Shown here in pieces: positions 20,106 through 52,446 of a DNA stretch of 64,000 nt. The stretch comes from a virus. Position numbers and translations under genes: made by a program. The stretch's first letter is position 1. The number at the start of each line of letters is the position of its first letter. The stretch lies in the IMG/VR virus record IMGVR_UViG_3300020185_000011. One strand, 5' to 3'. The notes below the pieces were generated by a model. The model did no database searches. It was not told the DNA's origin and saw only the letters and a list, made by a program, of their open reading frames with translations.

Positions 20106-20306
20106 ATGGGTATTAAAGTCGAAGGACAATCCAATCTTTATAGAGACGAAAGTTCTCATGCTATTATAAATACAGATGTAGAACAGTATAGATTACATAT
20201 GGTTAGGAAACAACGGTTTCTAGCACAAAGGAACGAGATAGACACACTTAAGAGTGAAGTATCAGAAATGAAAAGTATGCTTCAACAATTATTGGATAGG
20301 ACGTAA
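20106..20306 (+). CDS. Small conserved T4-like hypothetical protein (coiled coil)
   Basis: KVEG..NLYRDESS.AIINTD plus C-terminal coiled coil; ATG at 20106 follows the VrlC stop. Confidence 0.7.
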   Translation: MGIKVEGQSNLYRDESSHAIINTDVEQYRLHMVRKQRFLAQRNEIDTLKSEVSEMKSMLQQLLDRT

Positions 20307-21916
20307 TGGCAAAAACAGTAGACACATACTCAACTATTGAAGAGTTTAGACAAAAGTACAATGAACTAGCAGTTAATGTTGGTGATATCTCTGGCCTAAG
20401 AACAGAGAATCAAGAAACAGTTATTGATGCTCTGAATAGTTTAGAAGATAAATCATTCTTCTTCCAAGAGTTAATCTACACATGTACCAGTGGACAAACA
20501 GAATTTGGTTTGGGTACATCAATGCAAGTTGATGATTTTAACAACACACTTAGATTAAGAAAGGATAGATTCCAAGTATTCAAAAATTCTACTCTATTAT
20601 TAGAGGGTGCTGATTATTCTATATCTGCTGTTACTGGAAACATTTATTTCAAACTATCTCTAACAAGTGGTGCAACAGCAGGTGATAAACTTGTTGTCTA
20701 CTCATTCACAGGTTCATACTTAGGAACATCTACAATTGGTGCTCAATCAATTGGGTTCTTTACAGAGACAGCTGCAAATACAATTTATAATAACAACGAT
20801 AGTGGTGTTATTATCAATGGTAATTATGCAGATGCAGCCAACAGGGTAACAGCTCTTAGTGGTGGAAACACAATTGCAATGTATGGTCAAACTTTGCATG
20901 ATGGAAACTTTACAGTAGACACTGGACATACAATCACTGCACCAACCTTTACCGATTCAACAGCAACGATTACAGGCGGTGTGGGTACAGGTTTTAGTGC
21001 TATCACCTCAACAATATTTAACGGTAACCTAAGTGGTACGACTGCAGTTCTAACTTCAACAGTTCAAGCTGGTGGAGACATTACTTCATCTACAGACATA
21101 ATTGCTGGAAGTGAATTCGTAATCGGAAGTGCAAGAATAGATGAAACAGATTTAGAAAAAATCGATGACCTAACAAACGGAACTGTAATTGCTAGTAAAG
21201 CAGTTGCAGTAGATTCAAATAAAGATATTGGTGGATTCAGAAACATTACTGCAACAGCAGATATTACTGCTGGTAGTGAATTCATAATCGGAAGTGCAAG
21301 AGTAAATGAGACTGAACTAGAGATACTAGACGGTGCAACTTTAACCACTACAGAGATTAACTATCTTGACGGAACTACACTAGGAAGTGTTACTGCTAGT
21401 AACGTAGTTGCAGTTGATTCATCAAAAGATATCAGTGGATTTAGAAACATTACTGCAACTGGAGAGATAGAAGGTGGTTCACTTGATATCAACGGAAATG
21501 CAGACATTAGTGGTACCGTTTCCTTTGGTGGGGATGTTGACATTGATGGTGACTTAACATTCAATGGTACAACTTTCCAAGAATACGCACAAGACAGAGT
21601 TAAAGGATTACTAGACCACAATGGTCACTCAAACATAACTGCATCATATGAAGATTCAAATGATAAAATTATTCTTACTGCAGCTCCTCAATATGGGGAT
21701 AATGATGTTGCAGACTTAACAGTTGGCGGTACAGGTATTACCGAAACATACACTGGAGATGGAAACAGTTTGACATTCTCTACAGACCCAGGCGATGGAT
21801 TGAAAAATTCAGGCAGTGGAGTATCAGACAAAATTATGTTGGATTATGAAATAGTGTCAAACGCACCCACTTCCGTAGGGAGTACCGATGTTGGACACTT
21901 ATGGTTTGTGATATGA
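20306..21916 (+). CDS. Fibre/structural protein 1 (candidate carrier of zipper pair A/B)
   Basis: T.EEFRQKYN N-terminus, duplicated internal unit (..VAVDS.KDI.GFRNITAT..), ends APTSVGSTDVGHLWFVI. Confidence 0.6.
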   Translation: MAKTVDTYSTIEEFRQKYNELAVNVGDISGLRTENQETVIDALNSLEDKSFFFQELIYTCTSGQTEFGLGTSMQVDDFNNTLRLRKDRFQVFKNSTLLLEGADYSISAVTGNIYFKLSLTSGATAGDKLVVYSFTGSYLGTSTIGAQSIGFFTETAANTIYNNNDSGVIINGNYADAANRVTALSGGNTIAMYGQTLHDGNFTVDTGHTITAPTFTDSTATITGGVGTGFSAITSTIFNGNLSGTTAVLTSTVQAGGDITSSTDIIAGSEFVIGSARIDETDLEKIDDLTNGTVIASKAVAVDSNKDIGGFRNITATADITAGSEFIIGSARVNETELEILDGATLTTTEINYLDGTTLGSVTASNVVAVDSSKDISGFRNITATGEIEGGSLDINGNADISGTVSFGGDVDIDGDLTFNGTTFQEYAQDRVKGLLDHNGHSNITASYEDSNDKIILTAAPQYGDNDVADLTVGGTGITETYTGDGNSLTFSTDPGDGLKNSGSGVSDKIMLDYEIVSNAPTSVGSTDVGHLWFVI

Positions 21917-21917
21917 T

Positions 21918-23636
21918 ATGTCTGAAGAAACTTTTGTAAATATAGCAACGGAGATACAGCAACCTTACATTGCTCGTGTTCCTGTAAATGCTCAACAACC
22001 AAACATTAGACAGGTTGCTGTACAGTCACCAGCACAAGCACGTCAACCATCAACATACCAATACAGGTCTCCATTCATATACAATACTCCTGTAAGCGCA
22101 CAGCAACCTAACGTTAGGGATGCACGTCAACCTTTCACTTATACAAGACAAGGTCAGACCCCAACAACTTATCAGCATAGAAGTCCATTCACATATGCAA
22201 GACAAGGTCAACAACCAGCAATATATCAACATCAACAACCATACCCATATATTGCAGTAGCACAACAACCAAATGGTAGGGATGCACAACAACCTTATCC
22301 ATATATTGCACAAGCAAGACAGCCTGGATTCTATCAGCACCCTAGTCCATTTACATATCAAAATCCTGTAAATGCACAAGAACCAAATATTAGAGATGCA
22401 CAGCAACCGTATCCATACATTGCAGCTGGACAACAACCTACTATTAAGAATCAACAAGAACCTAATATACGTAATAGTCAAACACCATTCACATATAGAA
22501 ACCCAGTGAATGCACAAGAACCTAATATTAGAGATGCAAGACAGCCTGCTACATATCAGCATCAGTCTCCACTTACTTACAACTTTAGGTCTCCATTCAC
22601 GTATCAACATAGGTCACCATTCACATATAGAAATCCTGTAAGCGCACAAGAACCTAATATTAGAAACGCAAGACAGCCTGCTGAATATCAGCATCAGTCT
22701 CCATTCACTTATCAGAATCCTAGTAATGGTCAAGAGCCTAATATACGTAATAGTCAGACACCATTCACATATCAGAATCCAGTGAATGGACAACAACCTA
22801 ATATTAGAAGTGCCCAGCAACCGTATCCATACATTGCAAATTCACAAACACCATTTACGTATCAATATAGAAGTCCATTCACATATGCAAGGCAAGGACG
22901 AACACCATTTACTTATGCTGTGCAAACACCAGCAAATACATCTTCACAACAACCTTTGATTGCTCAGAGACCTTACATATTTGATGGTATCGATGGGGAT
23001 GATTCGAATCCAGCACCAACTACAACTTGGGGCCCAGGCGCTCAAGCTCAATATACTGTGGGTTCTCCTGCTTTTCCAATCTCTACAAATAGAGCATGGG
23101 ATAAGGCTGTTAGTTCTTTCGGTACTACGGCTAATAGTGCTACAGCATTTTTTAGATTCACTTATGGTGGAACAACATCAGCTGATGTTGATGTAGAATG
23201 GGCGGGAACTTTCCAACCAGCCACCAAGTTCTTCCCTGTATACGAAGATACTATAAACCATCATTCCCCAAGTGGAATTGACAGTACGTGGTCATGGGAA
23301 GCAAAATGGAATTCTACTGGAGACTCCAACTTGAACGAGCTGGGTATCAGTTTTGCTCCTCATCAATGGAGCACTTCTACAGGTAGTTACAAAGCAAAAG
23401 ATACATATTATAATATATGGAATGGGTCTTCTACGTCAAATTTGGTAGAATTCAAATGGAGAGCATCTGTGGGTAATCAGGGCGAATCAGAAGCATCGGT
23501 ACAGAGTACAGGTGTCGTATTTACCGTAAAAGTATCCAAGACAGGACAAACATCATTATACACTAGTTATAGTGCTGGGACAGTTAGACCAAGCGCATTC
23601 AACACTGGTGGCGGTGGTGGTGGAGGCTTCCAGTAA
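21918..23636 (+). CDS. Repeat protein A: Pro-punctuated 6/8/10-aa units plus ~220-aa C-terminal globular domain
   Basis: 44 units over aa 16-351; non-repetitive W/S/T-rich C-terminus ending GGGGGGFQ. Confidence 0.85.
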   Translation: MSEETFVNIATEIQQPYIARVPVNAQQPNIRQVAVQSPAQARQPSTYQYRSPFIYNTPVSAQQPNVRDARQPFTYTRQGQTPTTYQHRSPFTYARQGQQPAIYQHQQPYPYIAVAQQPNGRDAQQPYPYIAQARQPGFYQHPSPFTYQNPVNAQEPNIRDAQQPYPYIAAGQQPTIKNQQEPNIRNSQTPFTYRNPVNAQEPNIRDARQPATYQHQSPLTYNFRSPFTYQHRSPFTYRNPVSAQEPNIRNARQPAEYQHQSPFTYQNPSNGQEPNIRNSQTPFTYQNPVNGQQPNIRSAQQPYPYIANSQTPFTYQYRSPFTYARQGRTPFTYAVQTPANTSSQQPLIAQRPYIFDGIDGDDSNPAPTTTWGPGAQAQYTVGSPAFPISTNRAWDKAVSSFGTTANSATAFFRFTYGGTTSADVDVEWAGTFQPATKFFPVYEDTINHHSPSGIDSTWSWEAKWNSTGDSNLNELGISFAPHQWSTSTGSYKAKDTYYNIWNGSSTSNLVEFKWRASVGNQGESEASVQSTGVVFTVKVSKTGQTSLYTSYSAGTVRPSAFNTGGGGGGGFQ

Positions 23637-24661
23637 TGGCAACAGGACAACAACCATACGCATATCGTAACCCTATAATTGTAGGATATAGGATGCCTTC
23701 TATTGAGAACGCACAACAACCGTATCCATACATTGCAAATGCACAACAACCAAACATAAGGGATGCAAGACAGCCAGGAACATATGCAAGACAAGGGCAA
23801 ACGCCTTTTACTTATCAGCACCAGTCTCCATTCACTTACAGGAATCCTAGTAATGCACGTCAACCTGCTACATATCAGCATCAGTCTCCATTCACTTACA
23901 GAAACCCTGTAAATGGTCAAGAACCTAATATACGTAATAGTCAGACACCATTTACTTACAACTTTAGGTCTCCATTCACATATAGAAGTCCAGTGAATGC
24001 TCAAGAACCTAATATTAGAAACATACAACAACCTAATATTAGAAATCAGCAAGAGCCTAATATACGTAACAGTCAGACACCATTTACTTACAACTTTAGG
24101 TCTCCATCCACTTACAGGAATCCTAGTAATGCAAGGCAACCAGCGACTTATCAACATAGGTCACCACTTACATATAACCATAGGTCACCGTTTACCTATG
24201 CAAGACAGGCAATAAGACAAGTATCATATCAGCATCAATCACCGTATACGTATCGTAATCCTTCTAATGCACAAACAAATGTTGTTAAGGAAAGTCAGAC
24301 TCCATTCACATATGCTAGACAAGGTCAAACACCGTTTACGTATCAATATAGAAGTCCATTCACATATCAGAGAACAGGACGAACACCAGTGAATGCCAAT
24401 ACGGATATACAATATCCTTATATTGCAAGTGGTCAAGAGCCTAACATTAGAAACAGACAATTACCGTATCCATATATTGCAGCGGGTCAGACACCGTTTA
24501 CATATCAGCATAGGTCACCTTTCACTTATCAGAATCCAGTGCAAGGTCAAGAGCCTAATATTAGAAATTCACAAACACCGTTCTTCTATAATGCTGGTAG
24601 TCAAGTATCATATCAACACAGAAGTCCGTTCACATATCAAGTCACTTACAATACTACTAGG
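21963..24661 (+). repeat. Coding repeat arrays of A (21963-22970) and B (23654-24661)
   Basis: 18/24/30-nt units encoding PFTY.., PNIR.., PYPYIA.. and PVxAQE. Confidence 0.9.
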
Positions 24662-24805
24662 GTCATACCTAGATATGCAAGGGTCAAAGGTGTGTTCATA
24701 AATGACAATGGAACTTTAAGGAAATTAGACGAAGTTCACGTAAATGACAACGGAACGGCAAGAAAAATACACCAATCTGTACCAACTGCTCAGTATCAAA
24801 CTTAA
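23636..24805 (+). CDS. Repeat protein B (mirror partner of A)
   Basis: TAATG coupling to A; ~44 units over aa 7-342; C-terminal VKGVFINDNG..K..VHVNDNG..K segment. Confidence 0.85.
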   Translation: MATGQQPYAYRNPIIVGYRMPSIENAQQPYPYIANAQQPNIRDARQPGTYARQGQTPFTYQHQSPFTYRNPSNARQPATYQHQSPFTYRNPVNGQEPNIRNSQTPFTYNFRSPFTYRSPVNAQEPNIRNIQQPNIRNQQEPNIRNSQTPFTYNFRSPSTYRNPSNARQPATYQHRSPLTYNHRSPFTYARQAIRQVSYQHQSPYTYRNPSNAQTNVVKESQTPFTYARQGQTPFTYQYRSPFTYQRTGRTPVNANTDIQYPYIASGQEPNIRNRQLPYPYIAAGQTPFTYQHRSPFTYQNPVQGQEPNIRNSQTPFFYNAGSQVSYQHRSPFTYQVTYNTTRVIPRYARVKGVFINDNGTLRKLDEVHVNDNGTARKIHQSVPTAQYQT

Positions 24806-24823: not shown

Positions 24824-25153
24824 ATGGCTATTCTTGCAAACATATTCATCGACCAACATACAGACTTCAGTATTACTGTAGATGTAACCGATGCAACTGG
24901 AAATGTTCTTAACTTAACAGGTTATACTGCAGCTGCACAAATGAGAAAGACTTATACTTCCTCAAGTGCAAGTGCAACATTTACAACATCAATATCAGCA
25001 TCCGATGGTAAGGTAACATTATCATTAACTGATACACAAAGCGGAGCATTGGAGCCAGGTCGTTATGTATATGATATGACTGTAACTAGTGGTTCAACAA
25101 CTACTAGAGTAATAGAAGGACAGGCCATCGTAACCCCAAGTGTAACGAGGTGA
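24824..25153 (+). CDS. Small virion protein (BppU/baseplate-upper-like Ig fold)
   Basis: NLTGYTAAAQMRK, GRYVYDM, RVIEG...VTP.VTR. Confidence 0.6.
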   Translation: MAILANIFIDQHTDFSITVDVTDATGNVLNLTGYTAAAQMRKTYTSSSASATFTTSISASDGKVTLSLTDTQSGALEPGRYVYDMTVTSGSTTTRVIEGQAIVTPSVTR

Positions 25154-29650: not shown

Positions 29651-31977
29651 TGGCAGGTGAAAAGAATTTTATACTTAAGAACGGTCTATCCGTAGGAACA
29701 AACGATGTTCTAGATAGTTCGGGTGACTTAGTAGCAGCTGCATTCGGAACTGCAGCTCTAGAGGTCATCGATGACCAAGTCAATACCTTACTAACAGCAG
29801 GAACAGGTGTATCATTATCATATGACGACTCTGCTGGAACACTTACAATCAACGGACAACAAGGTGATATCACTGGAGTTAATGCTGGTGCTGGTTTAAC
29901 TGGTACTGCAAGTTCGGGTGATGCAACATTAAACATCGGTGCTGGTACAGGTATTACTGTAAATGCAGATGACATTGCAATCGACCTTAAAGACGAAGAC
30001 GATATGTCTTCGAACAGTGCATCTCACGCTGCATCACAACAATCAATTAAAGCTTATGTTGATGCAAGTATTCTAACAAAAGACAACACAGACGAAATCA
30101 CAGAAGGGTCAAGTAACCTTTACTTTACAGATGCAAGAGCAAGAGCTGCTCTATCAGCAACTGGTGATATATCATACAATAGTTCAACTGGTGTATTCAG
30201 TTTCACAAACGATGCTGGTGACATCGAATCAGTAGTTGCTGGTTCGGGTTTAACTGGTGGTGCAACAAGTGGAGCTGCAACATTAAACATTGGTGGTGGA
30301 ACAGGTATCTCAGTAGCTGCAGATGCAATCTCAGTAAACATGGGTGCATTTGATTCAGATGACTTAGGTGAAGGGACAACCAATCTCTATCATACTTCAG
30401 AAAGAGTTCAAGATGTAGTTGGTGCTCAATTAGCAACTAACGGTTCACACACTGGTCTTACAGCAACTTACGATGATGCTGGTGACGGTGCAGTTGACCT
30501 TGCAGTATCTTCAGAGTATATTGCAGATACAGTTGGTGCAATGGTATCATCAAATACAGAAAGTGGTATTACAGTTGCTTACCAAGATGCAGATAACACT
30601 TTAGACTTTACAATTGGAACACTTAACCAAGATACAACAGGATTAGCAGGAACTGCTACTGCACTTGCAAATGCAAGAACTATCTCGGGTGTTTCCTTTG
30701 ACGGTACAGCAAACATCACACTAAACACTAGTGGAATTACAGAAAATACAAACCTTTACTATACAAACGAAAGAGTAGATGACAGAGTTGGTGCATTAAT
30801 TGTTGGTGGTACAAACATCACTGCAACCTATGATGATGCAGCTGGAACACTTACAATTGACGGAAACGCAGCGGACATCACAGGTGTTACAGCAGGTGAC
30901 GGTCTAAGTGGTGGTGGTTCAACTGGTGCAGTTACCTTAAACCTAGACGCATCAGTCGCTGGTGACGGTCTTGCACATTCAAGTGGTGTTCTGTCAGTCG
31001 GAGTAGACGATAGTTCAATCGAAACAAATACAGATGCATTAAGAGTCAAAGCACTTGGTATTACTAATGCCATGTTAGCAGGTTCTATTGCAAACGCAAA
31101 ATTATCAAACAGCACAATAACAGTTGATGGTCAATCAGTTGCATTGGGTGGTTCGGTCACAACAACTAACACTCAACTATCTACAGAACAAGTAGAAGAC
31201 ATCGTAAATGGATTAGTAGTTGGTGGAACAAACATCACTTCTACATATGATGATGCAGCTGGAACACTTACACTTGCTGGTTCATCAGATGCAGATATCA
31301 GAGGTTTATTATCTGCTGGTGGAGATTTATCATACAACAGTGGAACTGGTGCATTCTCATTCACAGAGAGAACAGATGCAGAAGTAAGAGGTCTAGTATC
31401 AGTAACAGACAGTGGTGGAGATGGTTCACTTTCATATAATAGTTCAACTGGTGCAATAACTTACACAGGGCCAAGTGCATCTGAGACAAGAGCTCATTTA
31501 AGTGCTGGAACTGGTGTATCATATAGTGGTGGTGCATTCAGTATTGGTCAGGCAGTTGCAACTTCAAGTAACGTAACGTTTGGAAACTTAACATTAAGTG
31601 GTAACCTAACAGTTAATGGTGCCACTTCAACAGTAAGTTCAACTAACACAACCATCGAAGATTCTTTGATTGAGTTAGGAACAGGGACAACTGGTGCTCC
31701 AGCTGGAGACGCAGGTATTGTCATTGAAAGAGGTGATGAAAGTAACGTGTTTATGGGTTGGGACGACAGTGCATCAAGTTTTGCATTCGGAACAACTACT
31801 GCAACAGGTTCTTCAACTGGTGCTTTATCAGTAACACCAGCAGCGGTATCTACAGGTGCATTAACAATAACGAATGCATCTAACAGTGGTGGAACTGCAA
31901 GAAATGTTTACCAATCAACTTCTGCACCTGGCGGTTCAGATGGAGCGGTTGGTGATATGTGGATTCTTTACTCCTAA
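29650..31977 (+). CDS. Tail-fibre-like protein 2 (candidate carrier of zipper pair C/D)
   Basis: Repeated TYDDAAGTLT, EGSSNLYFT..R and ISYNSSTG units; ends APGGSDGAVGDMWILYS. Confidence 0.7.
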   Translation: MAGEKNFILKNGLSVGTNDVLDSSGDLVAAAFGTAALEVIDDQVNTLLTAGTGVSLSYDDSAGTLTINGQQGDITGVNAGAGLTGTASSGDATLNIGAGTGITVNADDIAIDLKDEDDMSSNSASHAASQQSIKAYVDASILTKDNTDEITEGSSNLYFTDARARAALSATGDISYNSSTGVFSFTNDAGDIESVVAGSGLTGGATSGAATLNIGGGTGISVAADAISVNMGAFDSDDLGEGTTNLYHTSERVQDVVGAQLATNGSHTGLTATYDDAGDGAVDLAVSSEYIADTVGAMVSSNTESGITVAYQDADNTLDFTIGTLNQDTTGLAGTATALANARTISGVSFDGTANITLNTSGITENTNLYYTNERVDDRVGALIVGGTNITATYDDAAGTLTIDGNAADITGVTAGDGLSGGGSTGAVTLNLDASVAGDGLAHSSGVLSVGVDDSSIETNTDALRVKALGITNAMLAGSIANAKLSNSTITVDGQSVALGGSVTTTNTQLSTEQVEDIVNGLVVGGTNITSTYDDAAGTLTLAGSSDADIRGLLSAGGDLSYNSGTGAFSFTERTDAEVRGLVSVTDSGGDGSLSYNSSTGAITYTGPSASETRAHLSAGTGVSYSGGAFSIGQAVATSSNVTFGNLTLSGNLTVNGATSTVSSTNTTIEDSLIELGTGTTGAPAGDAGIVIERGDESNVFMGWDDSASSFAFGTTTATGSSTGALSVTPAAVSTGALTITNASNSGGTARNVYQSTSAPGGSDGAVGDMWILYS

Positions 31978-32028: not shown

Positions 32029-33459
32029 ATGGCAACAGGTTCACAAAAGGTCAAAACACCAGCAGGTTGGAATTCAACCCAAGGTGCATGGGTAAAGACA
32101 GGTTCTTCCACATGGAAAGCAGTCGACCAAATCTATATTAAAACCCCTACTGGATGGAACAATGCATCAGGGCAGACTGCAACTCAAATTCCATATCCGT
32201 ACATTGCAAATGGACAACAGCCAAACATAAGGGATGCTCAACAACCATATCCATACATTGCAAATGCACAACAACCAAACATAAGAGATGCACAGCAACC
32301 GTATCCATATATTGCTAATGCACAAGAACCAAACATAAGGGATGCACAGCAACCATATCCTTATATAGCGAATGCAAGACAACCTTCTACGTACCAACAT
32401 AGGAGTCCGTTTACATATGCAAGACAGGGACAAACACCGTTCACTTATCAACATAGGTCTCCATTTACATATAGAAACCCAGTAAATGGTCAAGAACCTA
32501 ATATACGTAATAGTCAAACACCTTTCACTTATAGAAATCCAGTGAATGGACAAGAGCCTAATATTAGAGATGCACGTCAACCTTCTACGTATCAGCATAG
32601 AAGTCCATTTACGTACAATCATAGGTCACCATTTACGTACAGTCATAGGTCTCCATTCACATATAGAAGTCCAGTGAATGCTCAAGAACCGAACATTAGA
32701 GATGCAAGACAACCTGCTACGTATCAACATAGGTCACCGTTAACATATAGTCATAGGTCTCCGTTTACATATCAGCACAGGTCTCCATTTACATATAGAA
32801 GTCCTGTAAGCGCACAGGAACCTAATATTAGAAATGCACGTCAACCTGCTACGTATCAGCACAGGTCACCTTTAACATATAGTCACAGGTCACCATTCAC
32901 GTATCAACATAGGTCACCATTTACATATAGAAGTCCTGTATCTGCTCAAGAACCTAATATACGTAATGCAAGACAACCTTCTACGTATCAACATAGAAGT
33001 CCGTTAACATATAGTCATAGGTCACCATATACATACAGTCATAGGTCTCCGTTCACTTACAGAAACCCTGTATCTGCTCAACAACCTAATATACGTTCGG
33101 CACAACAACCTAATATACGTTCGGCACAACAACCGTTTACGTTCCAAAATCCGTTTACTTATCGACAACCAAGTAATGCTAGACAACCGAATAATGCAAG
33201 GAACCCATTTACGTATAGAGTACCGTATATTGCAAATGCTAGACAACCGAATAGTGCAAGGAACCCATTCACTTATAGAGTACCTTACATTGCTAATGCA
33301 AGACAACCGAATAGTGCAAGAAGCCCATTCACTTATAGAGTACCTTACATTGCTAATGCAAGGCAACCTGTTATTTCTCAGTCACCGTTTACATATAGTC
33401 ATAGGTCACCATTCAACTACTACTTTACTGGGGGTGGTGGCAACTTCTGTGAGCCATAA
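32029..33459 (+). CDS. Repeat protein C
   Basis: N-terminal VKT..GW..WVKTG..WK..IYIKT..GW segment; 55 Pro-started units over aa 55-460; ends GGGGNFCEP. Confidence 0.85.
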   Translation: MATGSQKVKTPAGWNSTQGAWVKTGSSTWKAVDQIYIKTPTGWNNASGQTATQIPYPYIANGQQPNIRDAQQPYPYIANAQQPNIRDAQQPYPYIANAQEPNIRDAQQPYPYIANARQPSTYQHRSPFTYARQGQTPFTYQHRSPFTYRNPVNGQEPNIRNSQTPFTYRNPVNGQEPNIRDARQPSTYQHRSPFTYNHRSPFTYSHRSPFTYRSPVNAQEPNIRDARQPATYQHRSPLTYSHRSPFTYQHRSPFTYRSPVSAQEPNIRNARQPATYQHRSPLTYSHRSPFTYQHRSPFTYRSPVSAQEPNIRNARQPSTYQHRSPLTYSHRSPYTYSHRSPFTYRNPVSAQQPNIRSAQQPNIRSAQQPFTFQNPFTYRQPSNARQPNNARNPFTYRVPYIANARQPNSARNPFTYRVPYIANARQPNSARSPFTYRVPYIANARQPVISQSPFTYSHRSPFNYYFTGGGGNFCEP

Positions 33460-34752
33460 GCCGATGAAAAACATGACAAGAAATAATATTAAACTAACAG
33501 GAGTTTTAAAGTGCCTATAGGTAATAGACAACAACCTACTATTAAGAACGCACAGCAACCTGTCGCGTCTCAGAATCCGTTCACATATGCAAACAGATAT
33601 CCAGCGAGTGCTCAACAACCTTTTACGTTCCAAGCACCATTTACATATAGTGCAAGATATCCAGCGAGTGCTCAACAACCTTTTACGTTCCAAGCACCAT
33701 TTACATATAGTGCAAGATATCCAGCGAATGGACAGCAACCGTTTACGTTTCAGAATCCGTTTACTTACAGACACCCTATGTCTGCGAGACAACCTAACAA
33801 CGCAAGGAATCCATTTACATACAGTTATAGGTCTCCATTTACGTACAACTATAGGTCACCATTTACATATAGAAGTCCTGTAAATGGTCAAGAACCTAAT
33901 ATACGTTCTGCACAAGAGCCTAATATTAGAAGTCAACAAGAACCTAATATACGTTCTGCACAGACTCCGTTCACTTATCAATATAGAAGTCCGTTCACTT
34001 ATAGAAACCCTGTATCTGCTCAAGAACCTAATATTAGAAACATACAGCAACCTAACATTAGAAGTCAGCAAGAACCTAATATACGTAATAGTCAAACACC
34101 GTTCACTTATCAGCACAGGTCTCCTTTCACTTATAGGAACCCTGTATCTGCACAAGAACCGAACATTAGAGCTGCACAACAACCTAATATTAGAAGTCAA
34201 CAAGAACCTAATATTAGAAACAGTCAAACACCGTTTACGTACAATCACAGGTCTCCATCTACATATAGGAACCCTGTATCTGCTCAAGAACCTAATATAC
34301 GTTCTGCTCAAGAACCTAATATACGTTCTGCACAAGAGCCTAACATTAGGGATGCTCAGACTCCGTTCACTTATCAATATAGAAGTCCGTTCACTTATCA
34401 GAATCCTAGTAATGCACGTCAACCTGCTACATATCAGTACAGGTCACCGTTCACTTATCAGAATCCAGTAAGCGCACAGGAACCTAATATTAGAAATGCA
34501 CAGCAACCGTATCCATACATTGCAGCTGCTCAAGAACCTAATATACGTAATGCACAGACTCCGTTTACTTATCAGAGAACAGGTCAAACACCGTTCACTT
34601 ATCAGCACAGGTCTCCATTCACGTATGCAAGACAGGGTCAAACACCGTTTACGTATCAACATAGAAGTCCGTTCACATATCAAAGAACAGGTCAAACACC
34701 GTTTACGTATCAACACAGAAGTCCATTCACATATGCAAGACAGGGTCAAACC
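32191..34752 (+). repeat. Coding repeat arrays of C (32191-33408) and D (33535-34752)
   Basis: Same unit alphabet; each array is 1218 nt; includes an exact 60-nt tandem at 33601-33720. Confidence 0.9.
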
Positions 34753-34815
34753 CCCGAAGCAAGATGGGATGGAGTGGTATCACAACAGTGGCCTGCAACC
34801 CCAATTACATCATAG
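33511..34815 (+). CDS. Repeat protein D (mirror partner of C)
   Basis: AGGAG RBS with GTG start; 55 units over aa 9-414. Confidence 0.85.
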   Translation: MPIGNRQQPTIKNAQQPVASQNPFTYANRYPASAQQPFTFQAPFTYSARYPASAQQPFTFQAPFTYSARYPANGQQPFTFQNPFTYRHPMSARQPNNARNPFTYSYRSPFTYNYRSPFTYRSPVNGQEPNIRSAQEPNIRSQQEPNIRSAQTPFTYQYRSPFTYRNPVSAQEPNIRNIQQPNIRSQQEPNIRNSQTPFTYQHRSPFTYRNPVSAQEPNIRAAQQPNIRSQQEPNIRNSQTPFTYNHRSPSTYRNPVSAQEPNIRSAQEPNIRSAQEPNIRDAQTPFTYQYRSPFTYQNPSNARQPATYQYRSPFTYQNPVSAQEPNIRNAQQPYPYIAAAQEPNIRNAQTPFTYQRTGQTPFTYQHRSPFTYARQGQTPFTYQHRSPFTYQRTGQTPFTYQHRSPFTYARQGQTPEARWDGVVSQQWPATPITS

Positions 34816-34879: not shown

Positions 34880-36460
34880 ATGAAAAATATAAGCACCCTT
34901 GAAGAAGCAAAAGAGTTAATTATCCCACAAGATTGGGACAAACTAAGAGACCAAGATAGAAGACACATTGGTAATTTCCATCTAGGTTCATTTAATATAG
35001 AACCAGGCTTTAGTAAAACTAGTGAAACATATAAAATTCTAGACTGGTTATTCAAAGAGATTCTTCCACCTGTAAAAATTGCAAAGTGGTCAGACTTTGA
35101 ATACCTAAGAAAGGAAAATAGATTTGGTGGGTTCAATGGTTTGAGAAATGAATCAGTAACCTATCACAAGTTCCTACCAAGAGGTTATGCAGAGAAACCT
35201 AGAAAGGTTATCCCAGGCGTAGCAGGTATGGATATGAAAGATGCTGATGGATATGTCGATATAGACACATTAATCGATTGGGATACCGTTGAAAATAGAG
35301 ACCAAAGTGCAGAAGGGTCATTACTATCGATGTATTATCATGGTGCAAAAGCACATTGGTTAATTCAAAGTATTCAAGAGGAAGGTCTTAGAGCTCCTAT
35401 TCAAGGATATGTTATCAGTCATGGTATTACTGGTAATAATGTAGAACCAACTTATACATTTAGAATACATCCAGGCTCTATTAGGAGTGGTGTGTTTGAA
35501 GAATTGAATGATAATGATATGGAAATTATGGTAATAGATAATTTTGATGTCGTGAAAGTTGAACCATCAAGCCTAGACGATGTGTTAGAAATGTGGTATA
35601 ATAAGTTAACGAGATTAGGTAAAGCATATCATTGTTCATTTACGTATGTTGATGGATGTATTGAATACAATACTGCATTGATGGACTTAGATTTCAGAGA
35701 AGAAGTACATGCATTCAACAAACAAGTCTTTGAACTTGCAAAGGGTAAACCCCTAACAATTTATATTGGACATGATAGTAGGCATGGAGATTTGTCTAAG
35801 TGTTCTAAGTTTGCAATCCTAGAAAGTATTAAAAGTGGATTCGGTAAAGGCTGGATGCACGACCAAGTTAAATGGGAACCCGAAGTCAAGATACTTGACA
35901 TTGCTGAGATTCCCGAGTATACTAGAGAGTATGCTAATCAAAGTACTGAATTTACATACAGTAGATTTCTAATACCTTACCTAGAGAACTATGAAGGGTT
36001 TAGTATCTTCATTGATGATGATTTCATCTTCAACAAAAGCATACTACCTATGTTCTACTATCTAAACCCAAACGATGCTGTTGCATGTATTAAATACCCA
36101 CAATACGAACATGATGCAACCAAGTTTGACGGTGAAGTTAATATCGATTATCCAAAGAAGCTGTGGTCTAGTATGATGGTGTTCAACAACGGACATGAAG
36201 ACTGTAAGAAGTTAACACCCGAAGTTGTCAACACATGGACAGGAAAACAGTTACATCAATTCGAATGGACTGATAAGATTTCACCTATACCCGAACACTA
36301 TATCTTTGTGGAAGGGTATGATAATCACGAAGAAAAGTATAATTATAGTGGTATTCACTATACTCGTGGTGGCCCATGGGTAAAAGGCATGGATTATTCT
36401 ACCATAAATAATCTTGAAGACTTTTTAAAAGTGAAAAGAAAGTTGCCAATTGGCGATTAG
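34880..36460 (+). CDS. Glycosyltransferase (C-terminal GT-A, CDI-like) fused to an uncharacterised N-terminal domain
   Basis: IYIGHDSR, QSTEFTYSRFLIPYL..YEG.SIFIDDDF (DxD), WSSMMVFN, IHYTRGGPW. Start reassigned to ATG 34880, after the terminator and late promoter. Confidence 0.8.
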   Translation: MKNISTLEEAKELIIPQDWDKLRDQDRRHIGNFHLGSFNIEPGFSKTSETYKILDWLFKEILPPVKIAKWSDFEYLRKENRFGGFNGLRNESVTYHKFLPRGYAEKPRKVIPGVAGMDMKDADGYVDIDTLIDWDTVENRDQSAEGSLLSMYYHGAKAHWLIQSIQEEGLRAPIQGYVISHGITGNNVEPTYTFRIHPGSIRSGVFEELNDNDMEIMVIDNFDVVKVEPSSLDDVLEMWYNKLTRLGKAYHCSFTYVDGCIEYNTALMDLDFREEVHAFNKQVFELAKGKPLTIYIGHDSRHGDLSKCSKFAILESIKSGFGKGWMHDQVKWEPEVKILDIAEIPEYTREYANQSTEFTYSRFLIPYLENYEGFSIFIDDDFIFNKSILPMFYYLNPNDAVACIKYPQYEHDATKFDGEVNIDYPKKLWSSMMVFNNGHEDCKKLTPEVVNTWTGKQLHQFEWTDKISPIPEHYIFVEGYDNHEEKYNYSGIHYTRGGPWVKGMDYSTINNLEDFLKVKRKLPIGD

Positions 36461-36471
36461 TATGTTATAAT
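36443..36471 (+). promoter_or_regulatory. Sigma70-type promoter
   Basis: TTGCCA-17 nt-TATAAT with extended TG. Confidence 0.65.
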
Positions 36472-36491
36472 AGTAACGAGGAACTATAATT

Positions 36492-37049
36492 ATGAATGCA
36501 TTTATATACGACAGTGATGGTACAATTTTTGTCCGTAAACCAAACGGACTGGAATACAACTATGAGAATGTCGACAAACCTGCTTTTGATTTTGAATATG
36601 ATGTTGTCATCTATGATGATATCGAAGTAAAGATTGAGAAGTGGGAAGACGGTCTAAACTTTGACCAACAACAAAAAGTTGCACTTTCAAGAGAAGAGTG
36701 TGAAATTATTGAACAATACATTGAGAATAGTGAACCACCTATGGGTCATAGTCTCAATAGTCAAATCGTTGACAGTCTCTATAGAACTACAGATAAATAT
36801 GTTGACGAAGAGTGTAGACAATACAGATTCAAAGACTTGAATGAAGCAATGTATGCTGGTAGAGAAGGTTCATCCCATCCCCATAGAAACAATGCAAGAA
36901 GAGCTCTTGAATATGCAGACGCAATCAATTGTGTTCTTGCACAACTTGTAGACGAAGTCCAACAAACTAGAGAAGATTTCTTAAAGGACTATGACGCTTA
37001 TCAGAGTGAACTACCAAGTCCATACGTACCCGAAGATACCAGAGCTTAA
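36492..37049 (+). CDS. Hypothetical protein (possibly tail-fibre-assembly-like)
   Basis: GAGG RBS; acidic 185-aa ORF; only weak remembered resemblance of the C-terminal helices to fibre chaperones. Confidence 0.5.
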   Translation: MNAFIYDSDGTIFVRKPNGLEYNYENVDKPAFDFEYDVVIYDDIEVKIEKWEDGLNFDQQQKVALSREECEIIEQYIENSEPPMGHSLNSQIVDSLYRTTDKYVDEECRQYRFKDLNEAMYAGREGSSHPHRNNARRALEYADAINCVLAQLVDEVQQTREDFLKDYDAYQSELPSPYVPEDTRA

Positions 37050-37052
37050 GTA

Positions 37053-37757
37053 ATGTTCGAAAATGTTGAGTTAGAGTTCATCAAGGAACCCTTTCATATC
37101 AAAGATATGCCTTTGAAAAATATGTATATCCTTGATGACTATCTATCTCCAACATTACATCATGCAATAGACGAACAGATAGTTCGAAAGTCTTACTGGG
37201 CAAAGACCAACCAAGTGAATTCAAACTCACCTACAGGATTACCGCACCATAGTTTTTGGGGTGCTGGGTTTTTCAGAGGAGAGAATCAAGAAATAGAACA
37301 CGGTATGGAACCTAAAGACACATACTTAATGGGATGGTTCAATAGAAAGCTACAAACTGATTTTGGTTTTATGTGGGAAAGGTTTCAATACTTTGGATTG
37401 AACTCACAAACTCAAGGATTGGAAGGAACCACACATTCAGATTGTGATATGGAAGATGATTGGAATCTATCATTCTTATATTATCCAAATAGATTTTGGA
37501 ATGATTCATGGGGTGGGTCTTTACGATTGTATGATGAACCACAACAAGGAATCCATGGAAGAGCAGACCACATTAAAAATCATCAAACACAAGAAATATA
37601 TTTTAAACCAAATAGATTGTTGATATTTGACGGAAGAATACCACATGGTGCAGATGCACCATCTCCAAAGGCACGATATATGGATAGACGTTCTTTGGTA
37701 ATAAGAGGAGACGAAATTAGTATAAGAACTTTATGGGGTGAAGATGCCTACGATTGA
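37053..37757 (+). CDS. 2OG-Fe(II) oxygenase (prolyl-hydroxylase-like)
   Basis: HSD ... LYYPN..W...WGG.L ... KPNRLLIFDGRIPH...P.....R.SL. Confidence 0.85.
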   Translation: MFENVELEFIKEPFHIKDMPLKNMYILDDYLSPTLHHAIDEQIVRKSYWAKTNQVNSNSPTGLPHHSFWGAGFFRGENQEIEHGMEPKDTYLMGWFNRKLQTDFGFMWERFQYFGLNSQTQGLEGTTHSDCDMEDDWNLSFLYYPNRFWNDSWGGSLRLYDEPQQGIHGRADHIKNHQTQEIYFKPNRLLIFDGRIPHGADAPSPKARYMDRRSLVIRGDEISIRTLWGEDAYD

Positions 37758-38670
37758 ATTCACAACTTACGATAAGAGAACCACAGAGTTATGGAGACCT
37801 GTTTTAGCTAAAAAGGTTGTTCCCGATTGGTGGAAGACCATGAAAGTTCAAGAGATGGTTCGTGGGAATAAGACTCAAACTATTAGGTCATGTCCAGCAA
37901 TGGACGACTGGTTAAAGAGTGGTTGGTACATATGTGCAAAAACAGATATGCAAGTAAAGGTAAATGAAGACGGTAGGTCAATGACAGACCCAAACAATCC
38001 CCTTCATTCTCCAACTCATCCAGCTGCACAAGGTGGTCATAACTTTACCTACCTACCCAAAGAGGATGCACCCACTAAAGATGCATTTAAAATGAGAGCT
38101 CCTTGGAATATTATTACACCACCAGGCTATTCATGTCTATATCTAGACCCCTTTCTATTTCAGAATACTCATTTTGCAACATGGCAGGGAATCATCGATA
38201 CAGATACATTCAATGTGAATATGGATAATTCTCAGATTATATTCTATCCTAAAACGAATAAGGACTTTGTAATCAAAGAGGGTACACCACTAGTACAGGT
38301 CGTTCCTTACAGAAGAGAAGTGTGGAATGCATCCTATATAACTTATGATAATAAATCATGGCAAGAGAATCGTTCTGTAAGAACTACACATAGAGTAGGA
38401 GAGGACGGTGAGAAACTCAAGACCATGGACGAATGGAATAGGTCACCCGAACTCAGAGAAGAGAAGAGACACATAGAAGGAATGGCTGGTGCATACAGAA
38501 GAATTAAATATTGGAATGAAAAGGGAAGGATGTTCAAAGAAGATAATCCACCACCCGAATGTCCTATGCACAACCCCGATGTAAATGACGAGGTAGAGAT
38601 GGAAAGGGATTATAAAAAAGAACAATTGAAACAAACTGATTTGAATTGGGATGGTCAAGATGACAGTTAG
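37744..38670 (+). CDS. Conserved hypothetical (DUF6065-like), often next to 2OG oxygenases
   Basis: TIRSCPAM.D.L..G, PW.I.TPPGYSCL, GIIDTD, GTPLVQVVPY.R. Confidence 0.55.
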   Translation: MPTIEFTTYDKRTTELWRPVLAKKVVPDWWKTMKVQEMVRGNKTQTIRSCPAMDDWLKSGWYICAKTDMQVKVNEDGRSMTDPNNPLHSPTHPAAQGGHNFTYLPKEDAPTKDAFKMRAPWNIITPPGYSCLYLDPFLFQNTHFATWQGIIDTDTFNVNMDNSQIIFYPKTNKDFVIKEGTPLVQVVPYRREVWNASYITYDNKSWQENRSVRTTHRVGEDGEKLKTMDEWNRSPELREEKRHIEGMAGAYRRIKYWNEKGRMFKEDNPPPECPMHNPDVNDEVEMERDYKKEQLKQTDLNWDGQDDS

Positions 38671-39370
38671 ATTAGCATTCCCTACTGCTATATTTGAAAG
38701 AGATTTACTTGACAAAGAAAAGTATGGTAACGATGCTGTTACAATTGAATACATCGATTCTCTTAGAAATGAAATGGATGCATGGAGACAAAGAGACCCG
38801 AAGGGAAGGCAGATTTCAAATAGATATACTGGTTGGCAGTCGGAAGATGGTATAGAACAACATCCAAGTTTTGCAAAGATTATAAGATGTATTGAAGCTG
38901 CATTGAGAGAAGAGGTGCAGACATTCTTTGGAGTAAATCCAAATGCAGCCCAAATTAAAATAGACAACACATGGGCAAACATAAATGATAAAGGTGCGTG
39001 GAACACACCACACTTACATAATGGTTGTTGGTATAGTGGAGTATGTTATATACATGGTGACGGTGACGAGGGAGACCTCAATATGATTAATACCGATGCT
39101 AAAGTAGTTGCAGACCACCCATCTTTGCAACGACACCAAGAGAGTATTCAGTACCAACCTAAAACTGGAAGACTCATATTGTTTCCTAGTGGTGCAATGC
39201 ATATGGTAGAACCCAATCCCACAGACAAAGATAGATACTCAATCTCTTTCAATTGTAGAGTACAATACATTGGTAATCCCTCAGATGCAAGAAAACCGTG
39301 GAGAAACCCACCGCCTGAAGATGAATTTACTTTTGAATTAGATTCAAATGGCGACCCCATAATCAACTAG
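38660..39370 (+). CDS. 2OG-Fe(II) oxygenase, TIGR02466-like
   Basis: FPTAI, WANIN..G.WN.PHLH, SGVCY, G.LILFPS...H.VEPN....RYSISFN. Confidence 0.85.
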   Translation: MTVRLAFPTAIFERDLLDKEKYGNDAVTIEYIDSLRNEMDAWRQRDPKGRQISNRYTGWQSEDGIEQHPSFAKIIRCIEAALREEVQTFFGVNPNAAQIKIDNTWANINDKGAWNTPHLHNGCWYSGVCYIHGDGDEGDLNMINTDAKVVADHPSLQRHQESIQYQPKTGRLILFPSGAMHMVEPNPTDKDRYSISFNCRVQYIGNPSDARKPWRNPPPEDEFTFELDSNGDPIIN

Positions 39371-44532: not shown

Positions 44533-46527
44533 ATGGCATTTCAAGTATCACCAGGCGTACAGGTCAAAGAAGTTGACCTTACAAATGTTGTACCAGCAGT
44601 ATCAAGCACAAGTGGTGCTTTCGCTGGTTCATTTCAATGGGGCCCTGTTGATGAAGTAAAGACAGTTTCAGACGCAAAGGGTTTAGTCGATGAGTTTTCA
44701 GAACCAGCTAATACTAACGCTGGAGCAGAAGACTTCTATTCAGCAGAAGCATTTTTAAGGTATGGTTCATCTTTAAGAGTAGTAAGAGTTAACTCCACAG
44801 GTTTGTTAAGTGCAAACGGTGCTGGGTCAACTGCTTCATTACTTAAAAATCATGACGAATACGTACAATCATATGAGAGTGGAGCTCTCAATGGAACAGT
44901 AGGTCAATGGATTGCAAGATGTCCAGGCGCATTAGGTAACTCAATTAAGGTTTCAGTATGTGCTTCATCCGATGCATATTACAATGATGCAGCGACTACA
45001 ACTAGTGGAGAAGAGGCAGCTGGTCAAACAGTTATTACTCTTGCAGCTGGTGGTGGTGTATTATTGAAAGTAAGAGACATCGTCACATTCGGTGCAGTCA
45101 CACAACAGTACAGAATTACAGCAATCAACACAGACAACATCACAGTCGAAGCATTAAATCAACCAGTAGGAACAGGACTAATTGCTACAGTGGCAAGTGG
45201 AACAGCAGTCAATAGATACTGGGAATTTTATGCATCTTTCGACAAAGCTCCAGGCAAGAGTGCATCTGCACTTGCAGCTGGTGGTTCAAATGACGAAATG
45301 CACGTTGTAGTTGCAGATGAAGATGGAACAATCAGTGGAACACCTCACAGCATCTTAGAAACATATGCATTCGTGTCAATGGCATCAGATGCAAAAGATT
45401 CTGCAAACAATTCAAACTATTATAAGAAAGTAATCGGTAACAAATCTGAATGGGTATACTGGAGTGGACATAATACATCTATTATAACACCAGCAAACCA
45501 AGACAGAACTCACCTAGCATCTGCTACAACATCTTTCTTATTCCCAACATTACCAGCAACTACTTCACTAAGTGGTGGTGCAAATGGAAGAACTCCAACT
45601 GCAGCTCAGAAGTACGGTGCATGGGAAGACCATTTCAAAGATGGGGATTTACATGACATCTCATTCTTGATTGTTGGTTCAACAAGAACTGATAACGGTT
45701 TGGGTGTCGACCAAGATACAATTGCAGACTGGACAACACTTGCTAACCAAGCAGTATTAGTTGCAGAAAATAGAAAGGATTGTATTGCAATCGTTTCTCC
45801 AAGACGTGCAGACGTTGTTGGTGTTACTTCAGAGTCAACACAAGCAACTAACGTCATTACAACTGCAAATACAATGTCTTCAAGTTCATATGCCGTAATC
45901 GACAGCGGTTGGACATACCAGTATGACCGATTCAATGATAAGTACTGTTACGTACCAGCTAATGGTCACACAGCAGGCATCATGGCAAGGTCAGACCTTC
46001 TTAGAGATGCATGGTTCTCACCAGCAGGATTCTCTAGAGGACAATACCTAGGTATCACAAAACTTGCATTCAATCCTTCACAATCATCAAGAGATGACTT
46101 GTACAGAGCAAGAGTTAACCCAGTAGTAACATTCCCAGGCCAAGGTACAATCCTTTATGGTGATAAGACTGCATTAACAAGTCCTTCTGCATTCGACAGA
46201 ATCAATGTAAGAAGACTGTTCATCGTCCTAGAAAAGGCAATATCAACTGCAGCTAAATCACAACTCTTTGAATTCAACGATGCATTCACAAGAGCTCAAT
46301 TTAGAGCAGCTGTTGAACCTTTCTTAAGAGATGTTAAAAACAGAAGAGGACTAGTAGATTTCTCAGTAGTTTGTGACGAAACAAACAACACTGATTCAGT
46401 CATCGATAGAAACGAATTTGTATGTTCTATCTTTGTGAAACCTTCTAGAAGTATTAACTTTATCACTCTTAACTTCGTGGCTGCAAGGTCGGGGGTTGAG
46501 TTTAGTGAAATATATGGTGCAGTTTAA
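44533..46527 (+). CDS. gp18: Tail sheath protein gp18
   Basis: SPGVQVKEVDLT, WFSPAGFSRG, FDRINVRRLF, SINFITLNFVA. Confidence 0.95.
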   Translation: MAFQVSPGVQVKEVDLTNVVPAVSSTSGAFAGSFQWGPVDEVKTVSDAKGLVDEFSEPANTNAGAEDFYSAEAFLRYGSSLRVVRVNSTGLLSANGAGSTASLLKNHDEYVQSYESGALNGTVGQWIARCPGALGNSIKVSVCASSDAYYNDAATTTSGEEAAGQTVITLAAGGGVLLKVRDIVTFGAVTQQYRITAINTDNITVEALNQPVGTGLIATVASGTAVNRYWEFYASFDKAPGKSASALAAGGSNDEMHVVVADEDGTISGTPHSILETYAFVSMASDAKDSANNSNYYKKVIGNKSEWVYWSGHNTSIITPANQDRTHLASATTSFLFPTLPATTSLSGGANGRTPTAAQKYGAWEDHFKDGDLHDISFLIVGSTRTDNGLGVDQDTIADWTTLANQAVLVAENRKDCIAIVSPRRADVVGVTSESTQATNVITTANTMSSSSYAVIDSGWTYQYDRFNDKYCYVPANGHTAGIMARSDLLRDAWFSPAGFSRGQYLGITKLAFNPSQSSRDDLYRARVNPVVTFPGQGTILYGDKTALTSPSAFDRINVRRLFIVLEKAISTAAKSQLFEFNDAFTRAQFRAAVEPFLRDVKNRRGLVDFSVVCDETNNTDSVIDRNEFVCSIFVKPSRSINFITLNFVAARSGVEFSEIYGAV

Positions 46528-51141: not shown

Positions 51142-52446
51142 ATGTTTTTATCAGAAAACTTACAAGAAAAGTGGGAGCCGATTCTAGAACACTCCGATTT
51201 ACCAAAAATCGAAGACAACTACAAGCGTGCTGTTACTGCTGTTATTCTTGAAAACCAAGAGAAGGCCCTTTTCGAAGAGCAAGGAAACTTGGAAGAAGCA
51301 GCACCTTTAAATGCTACTGGAAGCGCGGTTGCAAACTGGAATCCTATTTTGATTTCATTAGTAAGACGTGCTATGCCAAATCTCGTTGCATACGACATTT
51401 GTGGTGTTCAACCAATGACAGGCCCAACTGGACTTATCTTTGCTATGAAAGCAAGATATAACGATGATACTGACGCCGATAGAGCTGCAAAATCAGAAGC
51501 ACTTCATAACGAAGCAAGAACTGATTACTCTGCATCTCCTCAAGGAACAGGTACTTCACTAGGTTCAGACCCAATAGGTGACCCTTTCGACACATCATCT
51601 CCTTCATACGCATCCACTACAAGTGGTGGTATGAGTACTGCTTCTGCTGAAGCATTAGGTGATGGAGCAGGAAATCACTTTGCAGAGATGGCATTCTCAA
51701 TCGAGAAAGCTACTGTCACTGCTAAATCCAGAGCATTAAAAGCTGAGTACACACTCGAACTTGCACAAGACCTCAAAGCAATCCACGGTCTTGACGCAGA
51801 ATCAGAACTTGCAAATATTCTTTCATCAGAAATTCTTGCAGAAATCAACCGTGAAGTTATCAGAAATGTTAACTTACAAGCAAAAACTGGTGCAGCTTCA
51901 ACAGCTTCAGCAGGTACTTTCAACCTAGACGTTGATGCTAACGGTAGATGGTCTGTTGAGAAATTCAAAGGATTATTGTTCCAAATCGAAAGAGAATCAA
52001 ACTTCATCGCTAAAGATACACGTAGAGGAAAAGGTAACTTTATCCTATGTTCATCTGATGTAGCTTCTGCTCTTTCAATGGCAGGTGTATTAGATTACAC
52101 TCCTGCTCTTAACACAAACTTAAACGTTGACGATACTGGTAATACTTTTGCTGGTCTTCTAAACGGAAGAGTTAAAGTATATGTTGACCCATATGCTGGT
52201 GTTGACTACTTAACAGTAGGTTATAGAGGAACTAACCCTTATGATGCTGGTCTTTTCTATTGCCCATACGTTCCATTACAAATGGTTCGTGCAGTAGGTG
52301 AGAACACATTCCAACCAAAAATCGGTTTCAAAACTAGATATGGTATGGTTTCAAATCCATTCGTAGGTGCTACACCTGCTGACGGACTTGCATCCGCTGG
52401 AACTAACCAGTACTACAGAAAGATGGCAGTGTCTAACATTCTGTAA
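51142..52446 (+). CDS. gp23: Major capsid protein gp23
   Basis: LISLVRRAMPNL.AYDICGVQPMTGPTGLIFAM, SRALKAEY..ELAQDLKAIHGLDAE, FQPKIGFKTRYG. Confidence 0.97.
   Translation: MFLSENLQEKWEPILEHSDLPKIEDNYKRAVTAVILENQEKALFEEQGNLEEAAPLNATGSAVANWNPILISLVRRAMPNLVAYDICGVQPMTGPTGLIFAMKARYNDDTDADRAAKSEALHNEARTDYSASPQGTGTSLGSDPIGDPFDTSSPSYASTTSGGMSTASAEALGDGAGNHFAEMAFSIEKATVTAKSRALKAEYTLELAQDLKAIHGLDAESELANILSSEILAEINREVIRNVNLQAKTGAASTASAGTFNLDVDANGRWSVEKFKGLLFQIERESNFIAKDTRRGKGNFILCSSDVASALSMAGVLDYTPALNTNLNVDDTGNTFAGLLNGRVKVYVDPYAGVDYLTVGYRGTNPYDAGLFYCPYVPLQMVRAVGENTFQPKIGFKTRYGMVSNPFVGATPADGLASAGTNQYYRKMAVSNIL

Follow-up and report, generated by a model that had tools for sequence, protein, structure and literature searches.

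The stretch of DNA analyzed here, called the window below, comprises 64,000 nucleotides (nt) of the IMG/VR record IMGVR_UViG_3300020185_000011, and all coordinates are given in window numbering. By sequence, its source is a T4-like marine myovirus. The window has a G+C content of about 38% and encodes a gp23-type capsid protein (51142..52446) and a gp18-type sheath protein (44533..46527); the closest capsid identities are to Methylophilales phage Melnitz (67%) and Pelagibacter phage HTVC008M (65%). Within a block of baseplate and fibre genes lie two adjacent genes, A and B, which encode chains of short proline-initiated units, and the subject of this report is the mirror relation between these two chains. 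The pair is organized as follows (aa, amino acids; ORF, open reading frame).

21918..23636, plus strand: gene A (572 aa), which encodes the upstream partner in a type I pair, taken from the ORF list; orthologues include L002, L004, L006, L009 and P0001.
21918..21962, plus strand: A residues 1-15, a conserved N-terminal motif with invariant alignment columns that is common to single-chain forms and is assigned to the proximal end.
21963..22970, plus strand: A array, aa 16-351, 44 Pro-started units adding up to 336 aa.
22971..23600, plus strand: A C-terminal domain, approximately aa 352-561, a predicted β sandwich assigned to the fold-back (distal) end.
23601..23633, plus strand: A C-terminal poly-Gly tail, read from the sequence; the upstream chains of type II relatives share the poly-Gly, there followed by a Hint-like domain.
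23634..23638, plus strand: TAATG, where the stop codon of A (TAA) and the start codon of B (ATG) overlap by one base.
23636..24805, plus strand: gene B (389 aa), which encodes the downstream partner in the type I pair, taken from the ORF list; 77 related loci.
23654..24661, plus strand: B array, aa 7-342, 336 aa, the mirror complement of the A array (a + b = 358).
24662..24802, plus strand: B C-terminal tail, aa 343-389, a conserved β-hairpin-like motif with invariant columns, assigned to the proximal end beside the N-terminus of A.

A, B and the two proteins C and D of a sister pair are largely made up of Pro-initiated units, each 6, 8 or 10 residues in length. These units fall into an aromatic class (y), typically PFTYRN, PFTYQHRS or PFTYARQGQT, and a non-aromatic class (n), typically PVNAQE, PNIRNSQT or PYPYIANAQQ. 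Class was called by a rule that asks whether unit position 4 is aromatic or not. An initial annotation of the locus had parsed A and B into arrays of 336 aa each, had noted the coupling of the two genes by a TAATG overlap, and had proposed that A read forward matches B read backward in unit length and complementary class; our parse agrees with these arrays, and the overlap was confirmed.

In a parse-free test, residue i of A was paired with residue c − i of B, and the A unit starts that fell opposite B unit ends were counted. A single register, a + b = 358 (1-based; A16-351 opposite B342-7), takes 39 of the 44 B prolines and runs without gaps across all 336 aa. The runner-up register takes 26, and forward alignments reach 21 at most. 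When the register is written out, aromatic units each stand opposite a non-aromatic unit of the same length, and by the class rule 41 of the 44 unit pairs are complementary. The matched 10-residue units also lie opposite each other, each resembling an 8-mer with a two-residue insertion. The four unit pairs that the initial annotation had quoted as examples are all present where it placed them, and so are the B units that lack Pro.

Shuffling the unit order of B 5000 times gave a mean score of 19.6 (standard deviation 1.6) and a maximum of 30, compared with the observed 39 (z = 12), and the permutation test proposed with the initial annotation thus came out in its favour. The frequent 8-6-6-8 block is its own mirror complement, which makes a control that keeps neighbours relevant. 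Shuffles preserving neighbouring unit-length pairs (n = 400) reached no more than 26 (z = 11), and shuffles of unit tokens that preserve di-unit counts also fell short of the observed value. We therefore rejected a palindromic 8-6-6-8 super-repeat as a trivial cause. An inverted repeat at the DNA level was rejected as well, as the inverted repeats between A and B are short (14-30 nt, 70-87%) and lie outside the mirror register.

The sister pair uses the same unit code in another unit order.

32029..33459, plus strand: gene C, upstream chain of the type II pair.
33511..34815, plus strand: gene D, downstream chain of the type II pair.

In C/D, 56 of the 60 D prolines fit one mirror register, which is ungapped across about 410 aa, and unit-order shuffles reach 37 at most. 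Here, too, aromatic units stand opposite non-aromatic ones of the same length. The cross-pair scores (A with D, C with B) lie at background, between 20 and 26, as do all self comparisons. The initial annotation had described two independent pairs, and this wording proved too strong. A/B and C/D draw on one unit vocabulary, stretches of as many as 11 units recur in identical order in both, and blastn among the four genes found exclusively same-strand matches, with 64-80% identity. Judged from these sequences, the two pairs are paralogues that differ in unit order, not fully independent replicates.

Scanning IMG/VR with B as query yielded 77 loci, 64 of which contain exactly two adjacent same-strand repeat ORFs, corresponding to 45 distinct pairs. 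Their arrays range from about 270 to 560 aa, and their unit order varies. The fraction of prolines that fit one ungapped mirror register has a median of 0.89 for a chain and its own partner, compared with a mean of 0.47 across loci (45 pairs). In a set of 32 non-redundant pairs, unit boundaries coincide for 1245 unit pairs, and 1172 of these combine opposite classes. The window and its close orthologues at loci L002, L004, L006 and L009 share their proximal unit order and differ in the order of mid-array units, and yet the best partner of each A is the B of its own locus (30-39 on the diagonal, 19-27 off it). Only the window and L002, which are nearly identical, depart from this: here a chain scores as well with the partner from the other locus as with its own (36-39). 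Because the orthologues differ mid-array and still fit their own partner best, complementarity is maintained through changes in both genes.

One irregular unit pair, A aa 136-143 opposite B aa 215-222 (approximately 22323-22346 and 24278-24301), is kept in all five orthologous pairs. In A it is an aromatic 8-mer that contains a second Pro, in B a unit that lacks Pro and carries Val-Val-Lys; the pair could mark a fixed landmark or a kink of the shaft.

To quantify residue preferences between facing units, we pooled all facing unit pairs and used partners shuffled within each locus as control. In the following list a letter gives the unit class and a number the position within the unit.

8-mers: y2 with n6, 0.98 bit (Z 42).
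8-mers: y2 with n8, 0.76 bit.
8-mers: y6 and y8 with n2 and n4, 0.73-0.79 bit.
6-mers: y6 with n2, 0.84 bit.
10-mers: y2 with n10, 0.87 bit.
10-mers: y2 with n8, 0.79 bit.

The strong couplings are confined to even positions and are all antiparallel. Odd positions that are equally variable (y5, n5, n7) couple weakly, and the odd positions Thr3, Arg7 and Ile3 are nearly invariant. The couplings reflect recognizable residue rules. In 48 of 53 cases, drawn from 12 loci and found with either chain as carrier, a Leu at y2 has Gln and Glu opposite it at n6 and n8; where y2 is Ala, Ser and Thr take these places in 21 of 30. The PY.A subtype of the eight-residue n unit faces a y unit of eight residues with Asn/Gln or Ala/Tyr at positions 6/8 in all 98 cases with those residues, and Tyr4 is opposite a small residue throughout. 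These couplings fit a register in which Pro would lie opposite Pro and the two chains would have their even-numbered side chains on one face.

At two of the related loci, L010 and L025, only one ORF, about 490-530 aa long, occupies the slot between the homologues of the 536-aa and 109-aa genes that flank A/B. This ORF has an A-like start, a non-repeat middle and a B-like end. In protein P0003, which matches the L010 ORF, the N-terminal arm (28-165) is complementary unit by unit to the C-terminal arm (425-288) in one register. We found 21 proteins of this fused type, the more divergent of which do poorly on the proline measure. The locus is orthologous and the flanking genes are the same, as expected of a gene fusion (Rosetta stone) that points to an interacting pair. 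Since these single-chain orthologues carry self-complementary arms, they argue for interaction between A and B and for a topology in which the chain runs out, passes a tip and returns. A further single-chain protein, P0019 (502 aa), joins a type I N-terminus to the C-terminal tail of type II (Arg-Trp-Asp-Gly ... Gln-Gln-Trp-Pro), which suggests that modules of the proximal end can be exchanged.

Structure prediction shed no light on the pairing. With P0003 and 18 aligned relatives, AlphaFold2 (AF2) gave an overall predicted local distance difference test (pLDDT) score of 34.5, left the arms unmodelled and placed no helix. The N-terminal strand and the C-terminal hairpins, the latter modelled as short strands, are alone in exceeding a pLDDT of 55 (about 57-60). 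A complex prediction for A 1-130 with B 226-389, run with alignments, returned an interface score (ipSAE) of 0.00 in both runs, a result that counts neither for nor against binding. The C-terminal domain of A was predicted as an all-β sandwich (pLDDT 65, predicted template modelling (TM) score 0.67). For this fold no significant match was found in the PDB (Foldseek E > 0.005; VIA Z ≤ 4.8), and its best matches in BFVD (TM 0.39-0.50) are to unnamed phage proteins only.

The distal end of the upstream chain is variable among the relatives and consists of a β sandwich, as in A, of other domains or, in type II relatives, of a Hint-like domain or of poly-Gly only. By analogy, such a variable distal end is the usual layout of receptor-binding fibres. 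In many relatives of C a Hint/intein-like domain directly follows the poly-Gly, with Cys-Phe after Gly-Gly at its start and Val-His-Asn at its end. Hint motifs are present in P0029, P0042, P0091 and P0049; the Vint profile scored above its cut-off in P0091 and the other Hint profiles below theirs. Further Hint-bearing type II loci are L026, L033, L035, L037, L038, L041, L051, L054, L063, L068, L072, L074 and L075. No Hint-like domain was found in A, B, C or D of the window. C ends in poly-Gly followed by Asn-Phe-Cys-Glu-Pro (33430-33459) and A in poly-Gly followed by Phe-Gln (23601-23633), and by sequence both ends look like the Hint-bearing end minus the domain. It is possible that the chain cleaves itself at the distal fibre end, beside the N-terminus of the partner.

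The two types of pair differ in their end modules. Type I (A/B-like) pairs have an upstream chain with a short conserved N-terminus and a downstream chain with a hairpin-like tail; type II (C/D-like) pairs have an upstream chain with a 55-residue N-terminal module and a downstream chain with a short Trp-containing tail. The immediate neighbours of the type I pair are the following.

20306..21916, plus strand: fibre-like gene (536 aa), directly 5′ of the type I pair in all type I and fused-form loci (synteny).
24824..25153, plus strand: 109-aa gene, always directly 3′ of the type I pair; matches PHROG 1084 and 3304 ("L-shaped tail fiber protein assembly").

In every locus the gene order, with lengths in aa, is a 2271-aa protein, 69, 536, pair I, 109, 81, 537, 275, 137, 277, 775, pair II, 526, 185 and a 2-oxoglutarate (2OG) oxygenase. 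From this constant order it follows that phages of this clade carry both pairs. The module is kept in all 45 related loci, which come from marine viral metagenome contigs and include no cultured phage. The proteins 5′ of each pair (536 and 775 aa) end alike in a short Gly-x-x-Trp motif (21906-21916 and 31960-31977), which may be a common joint to the pair that follows. After the type II pair come, without exception, the 526-aa gene, the 185-aa gene and a 2OG-Fe(II) oxygenase (PF13640, 37053..37757), within the region 34880-39370; the order of this cassette is the same in about 30 type II loci, and a second oxygenase (PF13759) lies at 38651..39370. These genes provide a lead towards modification of the arrays (hydroxylation or glycosylation), which might partly explain the failed structure prediction. 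Long antisense ORFs lie opposite all four repeat genes (22050-22610, 23567-24157, 32167-32622 and 33856-34422, all on the minus strand). Those at 22050..22610 and 23567..24157 encode other sequences than the arrays, and all four are most likely by-products of a repeat composition that avoids stops on the opposite strand, not genes.

The mirror complementarity of A and B is real and conserved, and both fused forms and antiparallel covariation are seen. Physical antiparallel pairing of the two chains is strongly indicated by these sequence patterns. We consider it probable that A and B are the antiparallel strands of one virion fibre shaft in this T4-like marine myovirus. The two arrays would lie side by side as outgoing and returning strands of a long, thin shaft. 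Its proximal end would bring together the N-terminus of A and the C-terminal tail of B, and its distal end the β-sandwich domain of A and the N-terminus of B. Along the shaft, each 6-, 8- or 10-residue unit would face a unit of the same length and opposite class, with aromatic PFTY-type units opposite PNIR-, PVNAQE- or PYPYIA-type units. In both chains, side chains at even positions would point to one common face, on which large residues are met by small ones and Pro lies opposite Pro. The aperiodic order of lengths and classes would serve as a barcode that fixes a single register and prevents mispairing of each chain with itself or with the paralogous chains C and D in the same cell.

A Pro occurs every 6-10 residues and the spacings are all even; therefore an extended strand fits and long helices are excluded. 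The picture of a β ribbon is drawn from this even Pro spacing, from the β-prone composition and from the parity of the covariation. We infer the physical pairing, the extended β conformation, the location in the virion and a role in host contact. The shaft length of 110-115 nm proposed in the initial annotation is arithmetic only (336 residues × ~0.33 nm). Its reading of the pair as a two-chain fibre is partly supported, the antiparallel matching now being backed by the 45 pairs, the cognate fit, the fusions, the covariation and the gene overlap; independence of the two pairs was too strong a claim.

Several points weigh against this assignment. Production of the proteins, contact between A and B, and presence in the virion are predictions from the genes. 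The arms of the fused form, which AF2 did not model, leave their conformation a guess, and neither of the proposed ribbon faces is clearly hydrophobic. Duplicated blocks within genes and common ancestry inflate the counts behind the covariation, but leave the coupling at one parity unexplained. To our knowledge, an isolated two-stranded ribbon of more than 100 nm is unprecedented, and further copies or partners might be needed. Phage fibres are generally trimers, which a simple 1:1 duplex does not account for.

One alternative is that the chains pair level by level without forming an extended two-stranded ribbon, either as three A·B hairpins in a six-stranded antiparallel needle or as a two-chain cross-β stack, in which each unit would be one rung of a rod of about 20 nm. 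The three-hairpin bundle, modelled on the T4 gp37 needle, is a serious variant of the pairing reading. The passage on gp37 in PMC9659904 describes a six-stranded antiparallel β needle built from three fold-back chains, in line with the usual trimeric state of phage fibres. In addition, the near-invariant odd positions (Thr3, Arg7, Ile3) could form a generic second interface, and a stack, too, would need equal unit lengths at each level. Consecutive units of 6, 8 and 10 residues are, however, awkward for the rungs of a solenoid, and the arrays are without iron sites of the HxH kind found in gp37. On balance we regard these level-by-level arrangements as rather unlikely.

We give still less credit to two explanations in which A and B do not touch. 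It is improbable that both chains run in opposite directions along a third scaffold, such as the upstream trimeric fibre, and that the mirror reflects this scaffold. A fibre-like gene does precede every pair (536 aa in type I, 775 aa in type II), but these upstream proteins show no matching 6/8/10 pattern and vary little in length and identity while the arrays range from 270 to 560 aa; moreover, the complementarity of classes and the residue rules apply from one chain to the other directly. Even more improbable is that the arrays are flexible, possibly modified spacers, and that their mirror relation is a by-product of repeat duplication, for example by symmetric expansion at the gene junction. 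The disordered arms in the AF2 model and the conserved 2OG-Fe(II) oxygenase cassette 3′ of the type II pair would suit such spacers, and the paired segments are arranged symmetrically around the A/B junction; a single DNA swap centred on it would therefore carry both. Yet no known mutational process generates reversed order together with opposite class, the DNA matches are all same-strand with no inverted similarity in register, and the variable blocks of the orthologues lie mid-array, separated by conserved sequence, and are still complementary. The restriction of covariation to one side-chain parity speaks against spacers as well.

Beyond the antiparallel shaft that we favour for A/B, the data raise the more general idea of a modular protein "duplex code", to which we would give about even chances. 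In such a code, antiparallel recognition would proceed unit by unit through three length classes, two complementary types and finer residue rules, and an aperiodic unit order would give each pair a unique register and make the two paralogous pairs of one virion orthogonal. If true, this would be a protein analogue of nucleic-acid hybridization that is readable, predictable and re-programmable. If the pairing is physical, it represents a new way of building and addressing a protein fibre, with partner and register written in short complementary units. It would also explain how two similar fibres can be made in one cell without mixing of chains, offer a route by which fibre length can change with pairing retained, and provide protein designers with natural, apparently orthogonal pairing modules of β type. 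The module also marks an unknown part of the adsorption apparatus in marine T4-like phages, with a capsid protein nearest to those of Methylophilales and Pelagibacter phages.

Database searches returned little that could name these proteins. Pfam contains no family for A or B; Cementoin, the sole Pfam match (C below the cut-off, D just above it), was taken to be compositional. In PHROGs there was no match for A and only a weak match of the B tail (aa 350-381) to the unnamed PHROG 13729. None of the 455 homologues of B has a name. At 50% identity the family forms 164 clusters within a set of 1.84 billion representatives; the ESM Atlas holds no informative family, and its clusters nearest to B are labelled 100% viral. 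A sequence search of the PDB gave no relative at E < 0.3. Among cultured or deposited phages, megablast and tblastn with B, the A tip domain and the N-terminal part of C found no match (tblastn: 50,697 phage records, low-complexity filter on), and the searchable literature held nothing relevant on the unit motifs or related concepts. As far as we found, this fibre design has not been described before, with no matching family, solved structure or paper.

Among known systems, the A/B pair would work most like the fold-back needle of T4 gp37. As summarized in PMC9659904 after Bartual et al. 2010, this needle is a homotrimer of about 15 nm with His-coordinated iron, in which the chain folds back at the tip. 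The out-tip-back topology of the single-chain forms at L010 and L025 and the proposed antiparallel strands along the fibre axis resemble this description, and the self-complementary arms around a central domain match a gp37-type fold-back by sequence logic alone. In the same description gp37 forms each hairpin from one chain, whereas here the hairpin is usually split over two genes, with arms of 270-560 residues. The coded 6/8/10 units also set A and B apart from gp37, to which they have no sequence similarity, and the arrays contain no HxH motif but a single His per 8-residue aromatic unit. The functional likeness to gp37 is therefore not matched in sequence or in HxH motifs.

The triple-stranded β helix of T4 gp5 is built from an octapeptide repeat in three identical, parallel chains with constant period (PMC3004832). 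It has in common with A/B that a phage fibrous β structure is assembled from short repeats, eight-residue repeats among them. The two different chains, reverse order and variable period of A/B do not fit a gp5-like helix. In specificity, the arrays are comparable to Fos/Jun-type and antiparallel heterospecific coiled coils and to register-specific collagen heterotrimers, where partner and register are likewise encoded in a complementary residue pattern. Those systems are helical and have a fixed period (heptads or Gly-X-Y), whereas the periods here are even and unit length is part of the code. A Pro every 6-10 residues and an AF2 model devoid of helix do not agree with a coiled coil, nor do units of 6, 8 and 10 residues, with Gly in the 10-residue units only, agree with the Gly at every third position of a collagen-like or polyproline II structure. 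Antiparallel pairing of a long extended strand, held by side-chain contacts across the strands and without a large hydrophobic core, is known from the tandem β-zipper, in which adhesin repeats bind to fibronectin modules, and from single-layer sheets such as that of OspA. In the former a disordered peptide binds to folded domains and in the latter a short sheet forms within one protein, whereas A and B would pair as two mutually complementary arrays.

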